Of a stretch of 40,417 nt of DNA, positions 37,690 to 40,417 are shown piece after piece. The notes beneath the pieces were generated by a model. It made no database searches. It worked only from the letters and a program-made list of their open reading frames with translations, and was not told where the DNA came from. Position 1 is the stretch's first letter. Each line of letters opens with the position of its first letter. The translations under genes were made by a program, and so were the position numbers. This DNA comes from Candidatus Woesearchaeota archaeon (GTDB lineage: Archaea > Nanobdellota > Nanobdellia > Pacearchaeales > GW2011-AR1): contig CAZSNJ010000001.1 in NCBI GenBank assembly GCA_964608525.1, positions 31,639-72,055 of the forward strand, written 5' to 3'.

Positions 37690-37758
37690 ATTTAAACAAG
37701 AATAAATGGGTTTTATAAGGATTACTTAGATATCCTTAAACAAGATGTGTTAATTAAA

Positions 37759-37787
37759 TAATAGTAACAATGGAAAGATTTATAAAT
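37759..37787 (+). promoter_or_regulatory. shared upstream motif ATAATAGTAACAAT plus BRE/TATA-like box
   Basis: ataatagtaacaat (37759-37772) is followed by aaagatttataaat (37774-37787). The ruler predicts a TSS near 37808, 28 nt before the ATG at 37836. Confidence 0.5.
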
Positions 37788-39181: not shown

Positions 39182-39595
39182 TTACGACAGCTTTTGTTGT
39201 TTAACAGAACATAAAATTTCAGGGGCTTTGCAGTAGCTCATGGGGGGCTTGAAACCTGCAATGTTCTCTGTAGAAATTTCAGGGATATATTTCTTCGGAT
39301 TAGAAACTTGAAAAGCAATCGGATAATCTCCTGACTCAAGATATGGAACAACTTCATTTTTTTTGTAACAAATATCCTTTTTTGTTTTATTCCAAATATC
39401 ATTTGCTGTCCCAATTAATACCTTACCAACAATAAACTCCCCTATTAATTTCTTGTTTGGAGCTGTCGCATAAAGAATAATTTTATCACCTACATTTATT
39501 TTGCTTTTTCTTCTCCTATATTCCCACATTGATTTTCCATTTAGAAGATTTAAACCATACTCTTCTTTAATGCTCATTACATAAATATTCATCAT
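39182..39595 (-). CDS. ASCH (PUA-like) domain protein
   Basis: SIKEEYGLNLLNGKSMWEYRRRKSKINVGDKIILYATAPNKKLIGEFIVGKV matches the ASCH pattern (SI.P.Y...I..G.K..E.R....GD....Y.....I.G). Confidence 0.65.
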   Translation of the reverse strand: MMNIYVMSIKEEYGLNLLNGKSMWEYRRRKSKINVGDKIILYATAPNKKLIGEFIVGKVLIGTANDIWNKTKKDICYKKNEVVPYLESGDYPIAFQVSNPKKYIPEISTENIAGFKPPMSYCKAPEILCSVKQQKLS

Positions 39596-39649
39596 AATAA
39601 CTTAAAATTTAGATTATATAAAAAACTTCTTCTTTTAAAAAAAGAAGCA

Positions 39650-39885
39650 AAAGCGAGTCTGCCACCCCCAAAAGATTATTTCTATTTTCTTTTTTGCACC
39701 GAAGGTGTACCTCTTCGAGGCAGAAAAAAAGAAACAAAAAGGCGACGACAAACCCCTAATAAAAATAATAAAATAGTCCCGACGACTTTGAGTTTTCCCT
39801 TCGGCATCGTTGCACTAAAACTCAATCCCTAACGAAGAGTTTAACAGCGATTAAAAGATTACGAAGCCTTGCAGGCCCTCACTTT
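39650..39885. ncRNA. candidate structured RNA, block A (class and strand unresolved)
   Basis: No ORF and locally GC-enriched. Stems: tctgcc 39658-63 with ggcaga 39719-24; cacc-gaa-ggtg 39697-707; cctc-ttc-gagg 39710-20; 9-bp ttgagtttt 39788-96 with aaaactcaa 39817-25; gcct-tgc-aggc 39866-76. T-runs lie at both ends. Confidence 0.4.
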
Positions 39886-40013
39886 TTCTTAGAAGACTTT
39901 TTCTTCTTAGCTAATTTTTTAAGTTTTTCAACTTTACTTTGTTTATTCCTTTTTCTAGAAGATCTACATTGTTTTTTAACAACTTTCTTTTTTATTTGTT
40001 TTTTCTTTACCAT
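39879..40013 (-). CDS. 44-aa polybasic ORF (possibly spurious)
   Basis: Hand-translated: MVKKKQIKKKVVKKQCRSSRKRNKQSKVEKLKKLAKKKKSSKKK. It lies in the AT-rich spacer between the two structured blocks. A/T-run composition alone could generate it. Confidence 0.25.
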   Translation of the reverse strand: MVKKKQIKKKVVKKQCRSSRKRNKQSKVEKLKKLAKKKKSSKKK

Positions 40014-40024
40014 TTTTTTAAATT

Positions 40025-40245
40025 AAAGGGCTCGGTGAGGAAGTGCCACAAACAATGACTGAATTAATCCTAATCTACCAGTTTGTTTTAATGGTTATCT
40101 CCCTCGCACTGTAAGAAGCTTAAAGAGTACAGATTTCATATGGCGAGTTATAGCCCTTCCACCACATTAATAGCCAAATACTCAACAGAGGCTGAACAGT
40201 TGCATCCTTTTCAAGGACAACCGATAGTTAATTCAGTCAACAATA
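40025..40245. ncRNA. candidate structured RNA, block B (class unresolved, minus strand slightly favoured)
   Basis: No ORF and GC-enriched. Stems: ctcgc 40103-07 with gcgag 40143-47, enclosing ctgta 40109-13 with tacag 40128-32; gttg 40198-201 with caac 40219-22, enclosing tcctt-ttc-aagga 40205-17; acca 40077-80 with tggt 40092-95. Confidence 0.4.
40056..40239. repeat. perfect 12-bp inverted repeat bounding a 160-bp core, flanked by ACAA direct repeats
   Basis: tgactgaattaa at 40056-40067 is the exact reverse complement of ttaattcagtca at 40228-40239. acaa occurs immediately outside both arms, at 40052-55 and 40240-43. Confidence 0.6.
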
Positions 40246-40259
40246 GTATTTAAAGATTT
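40246..40259 (-). promoter_or_regulatory. BRE/TATA-like box on the minus strand pointing into block B
   Basis: The minus strand reads aaatctttaaatac, identical to the 14-mer at 17610-17623. The 21-nt ruler predicts a TSS near 40225 with no ATG there. Confidence 0.35.
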
Positions 40260-40417
40260 GCATTAACTAAGAGATTATAGCCTCCAATTACAATAAAAGA
40301 TAGTATAAGATCCTATTTTTAACAATTATTTCCTCATATTACAGGCCCTTTTAAAATCATTATAAATAACTTCAAAGACATAAATCTTTCTCCTCCGACG
40401 ATAAATTTAAGTTACCT

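Follow-up and report, generated by a model that had tools for sequence, protein, structure and literature searches.

Genomic context and composition of block A

The 40,417-nt stretch of DNA analysed here (the window) comes from an archaeon of about 27% G+C, assigned to Candidatus Woesearchaeota, and encodes a SecY with a Sec61-type plug and AglB/STT3. Identical genes are present on marine (TARA) metagenome contigs. On the minus strand, block B is followed by a 44-aa polybasic ORF (40013..39879), block A and an ASCH-like gene (39595..39182), and the question raised by this locus is what block A represents. The initial annotation, which placed it at 39650–39885, suggested an RNA gene or a structured UTR. 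On the best reading of the analysis described below it is neither of these. It is probably a decayed or fossil copy of a composite, integron-like and Xer-linked junction element which separates gene cassettes in DPANN archaea.

The sequence features behind the initial suggestion were reproduced. The region 39596–40417 is without an ORF of 60 aa or more, containing only ORFs of 37–47 aa, and the G+C content rises to 0.39–0.42 over 39650–39899 against 0.19–0.30 in the flanks, the whole window having a value of 0.265. The 6-bp helix between tctgcc (39658–63) and ggcaga (39719–24) was found, as were two 4-bp triloop mini-hairpins inside 39695–39723 (cacc-gaa-ggtg and cctc-ttc-gagg), a 9-bp helix of ttgagtttt (39788–96) with aaaactcaa (39817–25) closing a loop of 20 nt, a gcct-tgc-aggc hairpin (39866–76) and the direct repeat cgacgac (39743–49 and 39780–86). 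Folding of the single sequence barely exceeded that of shuffles, with z values of −2.3 for the plus and −1.9 for the minus strand. As this is only marginal, the case for more than chance structure rests on homology.

Searches against Rfam at gathering and permissive thresholds, using the window, contig L001 (which covers 1.1 kb past the window end), the strain variants and the intact relatives described below, gave no gathering-level match. The top score was that of PyrR with 23.8 bits, the gathering score being 54. ARAGORN predicted 0 tRNA or tmRNA genes. These results agree with the earlier failure to match block A by eye to SRP RNA, RNase P RNA, 5S rRNA or tRNA. Likenesses seen by eye to the SRP Alu domain (CUGUAGU..CUACUCGGGAGGCUGAG) and to RNase P J11/12 (AGUGCAAC) were dropped, along with a CRISPR repeat or tracrRNA, an H/ACA or C/D sRNA, a TnpB omega RNA and a riboswitch leader, because of the multiple arrayed copies, the lack of an adjacent TnpB or Cas gene, the random orientation of neighbouring genes and the empty Rfam result. 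A coding remnant was also rejected, with loop indels of 1–2 nt and variation in the form of stem covariation rather than a codon-like pattern.

A junction module family in DPANN archaea

A pattern taken from the loop of hairpin P2 of block A (minus strand) was used as a seed for searches in species-representative genomes and in metagenome contigs. This pattern was matched at no fewer than 120 loci in each of these two sets. Among the matches listed, nearly all were labelled as DPANN, namely Woese-, Pace-, Nano-, Aenigm-, Micr- and Parvarchaeota and Altiarchaeia. Several MAGs had two contigs with the module, with copies often lying at contig ends. The module family was defined in this analysis with a covariance model (R1) of 94 positions and is not in Rfam. 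It should also be noted that the module occurs on contigs labelled as bacterial MAGs (L040, L046, L053, L061, L068, L079 and L082), the labels being Deltaproteobacteria, Peribacteria, Patescibacteria, Thioploca, Spirochaetota, Peregrinibacteria and Acidobacteriota. Misbinning is likely for these, since most are short and have a G+C content of 28–35%; L082 lies on a contig of 110 kb.

The sense strand of the module corresponds to the minus strand of the window. On this strand an intact copy starts with a cassette-end repeat and ATTGAnnTAAC, followed by A-(TCG)-(10-nt 5′ arm)-AAGU. The middle of the element contains variable hairpins, AUUUGGGUGGAG, a CCUGCAAGG hairpin, the complementary 3′ arm and CTGTTA, and leads into a core made up of hairpin P1, hairpin P2 with its near-invariant loop, and AGU. 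The element ends with a class-specific segment, for which about eight classes were distinguished, A/U hairpin 1, a ..UUUUGGGGUGG..GACUCGC motif and A/U hairpin 2.

Block A is a truncated member of this family of cassette-junction modules. It carries the core signature of CTGTTA box, P1, P2 loop (UUUUAGUGCAAC..CCGNAGG.AAAA) and AGU, and was matched by R1 at 39780..39866 (minus strand) over model positions 1–94 of 94, with 78.9 bits and an E-value of 2.4e-16. The corresponding nhmmer score was 67.6 bits. The second-best match of the covariance model in the window had an E-value of 0.25, leaving block A as the sole copy in the 40.4 kb, and a window-wide repeat search likewise found no second copy of the module.

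The individual parts of block A were assigned by alignment with the relatives, all on the minus strand. The GCCUGCAAGGC hairpin at 39866..39876, which is the gcct/aggc hairpin of the initial annotation, corresponds to the CCUGCAAGG hairpin found throughout the family in the variable terminal part. It is followed by the 3′ arm (UCUUUUAAUCG) of the long helix at 39848..39858, whose 5′ partner is missing from the window, and by the CTGTTAAAC box at 39839..39847. This box contains the CTGTTA which is nearly invariant in the family and includes GTTAAAC, a match to GTTRRRY, the consensus of integron core sites. Hairpin P1 is present in a short form (CUCUUC-GUUA-GGGA) at 39826..39839, this helix having changes on both sides at 3/3 pairs in the family. 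Hairpin P2 (39788..39825), which is the 9-bp helix noted initially, has a near-invariant loop AGUGCAACGAUGCCGAAGGG with an inner C(GAA)G mini-hairpin; it was found in more than 240 loci, with 5/8 pairs covarying.

Downstream of P2, AGU and the class-specific segment (CGUCGGGAC...GGGGUUUGUCGUCGCC) occupy 39741..39787 and contain the cgacgac direct repeat, the same class being found in around 30 loci. A/U hairpin 1 (UUUCUUUUUUU...AAAAAAGAAA) at 39679..39740 is conserved in the alignments of the relatives. Its loop holds a private insert of 29 nt (39695–39723) containing both mini-hairpins, so that the 6-bp helix with two triloop hairpins described initially is in fact a strain-specific addition. 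The relatives are without this insert, the contigs of other strains join 39723 to an uninterrupted hairpin 1, and no match to it was found elsewhere. The UAAUCUUUUGGGGGUGGCAGACUCGC motif at 39653..39678, which lies 3′ of hairpin 1 in the relatives, has 80–88% identity in at least 13 loci. A/U hairpin 2 (UUUUGCUUCUUUUUUUAAAAGAAGAAG) with its U7 tract is the last conserved piece (39626..39652), with breakpoints of DNA contigs at 39627, and both family conservation and strain identity stop at this hairpin. The whole of 39626–39787 aligns with the downstream leader of the family (class segment, hairpins and UUUUGGGGUGG motif) at this same 80–88% in at least 13 loci.

Strain variation and the ASCH promoter

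Block A differs by replacements and indels among contigs which encode an identical ASCH protein. L010 and L003 have another segment after the 9-bp helix, of a different class (CGTGAGCC...), and the mini-hairpin insert is missing from them. Strain variants of the 9-bp helix show a change from G-C to U-A. The breakpoints of DNA contigs from other strains, at 39627, 39723 and 39775, coincide with borders of the module. The depth of DNA runs over 39779–39840 was roughly 10 times that of the strain-specific flanks, and a contig from a cold spring carried 49 nt of this same core with zero changes.

A TATA-like box, UUUUUUAUAUAA, was read from the sequence at 39614..39625 (minus strand), some 25 nt ahead of the start codon of ASCH (39595). 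Archaeal promoter geometry predicts it to be a leaderless-type promoter of the ASCH gene. With a TATA box at this distance from the ATG, block A is not the leader of ASCH. A 5′ UTR of ASCH was accordingly rejected, as the gene has its own TATA box and strain L009 encodes the same protein behind a different upstream region. In L009 (1–430), the 430 nt upstream of the identical ASCH protein are wholly different, GC-richer and hairpin-rich, and gave an empty result in Rfam.

Compensatory changes and strand-specific folding

The homologous loci do show the compensatory changes by which the structure of block A was to be judged. In an alignment of 75 sequences of the 3′ module, changes on both sides were found at 10/14 pairs. 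Pairing cells amounted to 96.3% compared with 81.7% in shuffles, and cells changed on both sides to 147 compared with 41, a number reached by 0/500 shuffles and by none of the slid controls (31 at most). In the long arm, 71 full-length copies together had 670 Watson-Crick pairs, 36 G·T pairs and 1 A·C pair. C(GNA)G mini-hairpins were counted 143 times on the sense strand and 3 times on the antisense strand over 132 kb of junction flanks.

The ratio of 36 G·T to 1 A·C and the 143 to 3 mini-hairpins indicate single-stranded folding of one strand of the module, the sense strand. In the P1 and P2 stems, G·U was not in excess over A·C (about 19 compared with 15). C-G-closed GNA triloops form hyperstable DNA mini-hairpins of the d(GCGAAGC) type and are a hallmark of DNA rather than of RNA. 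The C(GNA)G loops of the module therefore lean towards folding as DNA over folding as RNA.

Truncation of the block A copy

The point of fusion was located at 39874..39881 (minus strand) by alignment with L220 and L212, two relatives which share the B RNA and the polybasic ORF with the window at 82–96% identity. In these relatives, about 190–240 nt lie between the ORF and the GUCUGCAAGAC hairpin. This interval contains ATTGAAACTAAC after a cassette-end repeat, and then the 5′ arm, an AAGU hairpin and AUUUGGGUG(A/G)AG. The window is without all of it (cassette-end repeat, ATTGAnnTAAC, 5′ arm, AAGU hairpin and AUUUGGGUGGAG), the last codon and TGA stop (39879–39881) of the 44-aa ORF running directly into GGGCCUGCAAGG.

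With the ORF stop joined to mid-module in this way, the 5′ half is absent from block A. In consequence, the 3′ arm at 39848–58 is left without a partner and the long helix cannot form, and the site should be dead for recombination. Neither a partner arm, the other end of the cassette nor a second module was found in the 40.4-kb window. Matches resembling ATTGAnnTAAC were at chance level there (14 against 13 expected), and no tyrosine recombinase (xer) was found among the window ORFs tested.

Two further elements were observed in the surroundings. At 37748–37759 (minus strand), in the gap beyond the small-gene island, ATTTAATTAACA precedes an AAGGAT...ATCCTT palindrome. This site resembles the array-end sites upstream of xer described below, the box pattern being at chance frequency. 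Past the window end, L001 holds at 190–400 a partial junction-like element (TAACATCGGGTTAAAGAAAGT...ATTTGGG...CCTGCAAGG) without a P2 core, which lies on the opposite strand and is oriented opposite to block A.

Cassette arrays and the XerA-type recombinase

A profile search of all fetched loci found 44 loci with 2–3 copies of the module, always on one strand, with a spacing of 0.5–7 kb. When all ORFs of at least 90 aa were clustered, the most recurrent neighbour was a tyrosine recombinase of about 270 aa (260–290) with Phage_integrase and SAM-like domains, present in 27 loci. It lies on the strand of the module in 26/27 loci and downstream of it in 25/27. The XerA cut-off (NF040815) was passed by five of the six recombinases tested. 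None reached the integron-integrase cut-off of 265 (TIGR02249), the scores being 183–231 bits with the match split around the IntI-specific insert. In about 18 loci the array-end boundary, ATTGAnnTAAC|A followed by a short palindrome, directly precedes a co-oriented xer gene.

Single cassettes in the relatives could be outlined as well. In L212 (1–1870) and L220 (2250–3300), junction modules enclose B together with the polybasic ORF as one unit. This unit is present twice in tandem in L212, immediately upstream of an XerA-type gene, and its last copy ends in ATTGAAACTAAC followed by ACGCCGG. Within the 40.4-kb window, block A is a single copy which is neither in an array nor upstream of an XerA-type gene. 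Inverted repeats bracketing the cassettes exceeded the 95th percentile of the control in only 15/47 cassettes, and the recombination products looked for (excised circle, empty site and read-level joint) were not seen for any copy.

Downstream neighbour ORFs had the same orientation as the module in 97 cases and the opposite orientation in 123, and upstream neighbours in 85 and 106 cases, respectively. As neighbouring genes face both ways, the module is not an mRNA leader or trailer. The initial view of block A stands in so far as it is conserved, structured and non-coding, with compensatory changes in its relatives; an RNA gene or UTR is not supported by the RNA depth, the TATA box of ASCH, the orientation of neighbours or the co-oriented arrays at an XerA-type gene.

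Transcription of block A and of block B

The depths given here were obtained from Logan contigs, which show presence and not absence. On this basis block A had zero depth in the marine RNA runs X1, X2, X3, X4 and X25, so that the transcript looked for after the initial annotation did not appear in these five contig sets. In the DNA runs of the same two samples the block A core had depths of 300–320 and 29–35. On these data, block A is without a stable transcript. Block B reached a depth of up to 5×10^5 in marine RNA runs.

Metatranscriptomes from lake, salt-lake and groundwater samples contained words of the module when an intact junction was used as the query. In two lake RNA runs, the depth on L212 was 1.8×10^5 for B, 28–51 for the ORF and 4–28 for the junction after the first B/ORF unit, dropping to 0 past the AAUAUUUUUUUGGG (U7) tract and remaining 0 over the xer gene. 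This profile resembles read-through that stops within the junction, and not a stable RNA. In a groundwater RNA run, an insert of 40 nt consisting of the P2 loop and 3′ strand was observed at L212 283–322, with the adaptor directly after it and a depth of about 24. Either a stable product of degradation or a fragment released by processing could account for it.

Block B (40030–40215, minus strand) is a discrete and very abundant small RNA of about 187 nt. Its insert in the lake runs has adaptor letters at both ends, a TTTAAATA box precedes the RNA by about 25 nt, and the 3′ end of the RNA comes before UUUAAUUU. The fold of four homologues had 62 pairs, of which 3 were compensatory, and many changes from A-U to G-U which fit the minus strand only; no match was found in Rfam. 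Permuted RNA contigs were also seen inside B (40026–40223), with X4 joining 40171 to 40026 and X1 joining 40223 to about 40100. These could be circles, multimers or assembly artefacts. The predicted 44-aa polybasic ORF (39879–40013, minus strand) begins about 13 nt past the 3′ end of the B RNA, and differs from the L220 copy by 9 synonymous and 11 non-synonymous codons, with 4/10/11 changes at the three codon positions.

GC screening has reportedly been used by Klein, Misulovin and Eddy (2002) to find non-coding RNA genes of high G+C in archaea with AT-rich genomes. As a GC-rich, ORF-free and hairpin-rich island in a genome of 27% G+C, block A is similar to such genes, but it differs from them in being without a stable transcript. 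The logic of this screening does hold for block B.

The alternative which survives best is a family of structured non-coding RNAs, such as cassette-boundary processing, insulating or ribozyme-like RNAs or protein-binding small RNAs, with block A as a 5′-truncated gene or pseudogene. Such an RNA would be in keeping with the strong covariation and near-invariant loops, and with a strand-specific fold having 36 G·U against 1 A·C, but the C-G-closed GNA triloops are of the DNA type. Words of the module do occur in lake, salt-lake and groundwater metatranscriptome contigs, yet the junction depth of 4–28 stands against 10^4–10^5 on the B RNA and falls along the element as read-through would, and depth was zero in the five marine RNA runs despite the presence of the DNA. 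Oligo-U tracts follow the hairpins, while a conserved promoter before the module was not found and neighbouring genes lie in both orientations. An RNA would also leave unexplained why the co-oriented arrays are tied to a recombinase gene. It is kept as an unlikely but appreciable alternative, because contigs cannot prove absence and because the 40-nt P2 fragment ends exactly at the adaptor.

Relationship to integrons and other Xer-related systems

The cassette-junction reading places the module close to integrons. attC clusters, mostly without IntI, have been reported in 75/6718 archaeal genomes, a few of them from Pace- and Woesearchaeales (Ghaly et al., 2022; PMC9668308). As in integron attC arrays, whether with IntI or as archaeal CALINs, short co-oriented cassettes are split by imperfect palindromes which fold on one strand, TAAC and GTTA-type boxes somewhat like those of attC lie at the base of the hairpin, the variable terminal part is mid-element and a tyrosine recombinase gene is present at one end of the array. 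The genes of the module cassettes differ from those of integrons in that they face both ways and carry their own promoters, and the window copy is without the 5′ arm.

These similarities raise the question of whether the module is a true attC site served by an IntI encoded elsewhere, the arrays being CALINs of the kind reported for archaea in 2022. The TAAC...GTTA(A/G) boxes do resemble R″ and R′ (RYYYAAC and GTTRRRY), with GTTAAAC as the box in block A. In the family, the boxes fit the attC consensus only partly (TAAC...CTGTTA(R), with GTTCAAC, GTTATAT and GTTAGTT common), and the GTTAAAC of the window is without an R″. The long imperfect hairpin and its strand-specific fold would suit an attC site, but the apparent boundary lies at the TAAC box and not between the G and TT of R′, and the R′-like box is followed by an extra conserved 75-nt module with two hairpins and by two A/U hairpins. 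To our knowledge, such a conserved 75-nt module and two A/U hairpins after the R′ box have not been described for attC. The recombinases score as XerA, are without the IntI insert that splits the TIGR02249 match (183–231 bits against 265), and are downstream and co-oriented rather than upstream and divergent. Although attC clusters without IntI are listed for Pacearchaeales, Woesearchaeales and Aenigmatarchaeota, the element is far more widespread than the 75/6718 genomes of that study (Ghaly et al., 2022; PMC9668308), and a true attC site is considered very improbable.

A selfish miniature repeat of MITE-like or REP-like type, multiplied by transposition and with block A as a dead copy having no role in site-specific recombination, is equally improbable: although there are several copies per genome, often at contig ends, with inverted repeats flanking units, a presence and class that vary by strain and a truncated copy in the window, the core is conserved over DPANN lineages with compensatory changes and not only by near-identity within a genome, each locus has one shared orientation, target-site duplications were not seen, and the recurrent neighbour is not a transposase but an XerA-type recombinase of fixed position and orientation.

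Two Xer-related systems are also relevant to the cassette-junction reading. In CTX phage, an Xer-exploiting IMEX, folded single-stranded DNA forms a dif-like site which is recombined by XerCD. The module is similar in that an Xer-type enzyme would act on a site formed only by the folding of one strand. It differs in that CTX is a bacterial phage with a single genome integrated at dif and without cassette arrays, and in that single-stranded DNA intermediates and Xer activity are putative for the module. Archaeal XerA/dif resolves chromosome dimers, with dif being a single double-stranded site per chromosome. The resemblance lies in the neighbour enzymes, which score as XerA equivalogs, and in a spacer-containing short palindrome immediately before their gene, but the module, unlike dif, is a family of long folded sites heading many cassettes.

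Proposed mechanism and implications

The proposed mechanism builds on the covariation, the co-oriented arrays, the XerA-type neighbour in its fixed position and the boundary between TAAC and A. It is suspected that the sense strand of an intact module folds as single-stranded DNA, and that the two arms with the TAACA and TGTTA boxes rebuild a core site for the recombinase in the folded strand. An Xer-type enzyme would then exchange cassettes at this folded site, with a logic like that of integron attC sites or of CTX phage DNA recombined by XerCD. The window copy would be a fixed scar between the unit of B RNA and 44-aa ORF and the island of the ASCH gene. Its oligo-U tracts probably terminate read-through from the very strong promoter of B, and block A may also serve as a spacer or insulator between the B and ASCH promoters.

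A broader suggestion, put forward tentatively, is that the intact relatives are recombination sites of an archaeal gene-capture system which has not been described as such in print. In this system, an XerA-type enzyme without the IntI domain would swap cassettes only at the folded strand, with RNA genes as well as protein genes as possible cargo, the B RNA being the example here. A literature search for an Xer-linked version found nothing, and the attC clusters of Ghaly et al. (2022) were the only related report found.

For the window itself, this reading removes a false RNA-gene candidate and accounts for the GC content and hairpins of the spacer as well as for its variability among strains sharing an identical neighbouring protein. 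The truncated copy would illustrate how such cassettes become fixed in the chromosome. For the family, the module marks cassette borders across hundreds of DPANN genomes and is tied to an XerA-type recombinase and not to an integron integrase. Should the mechanism hold, the genome-reduced and host-dependent DPANN archaea would possess a cassette-exchange platform of their own, and with it a route for horizontal gene flow.
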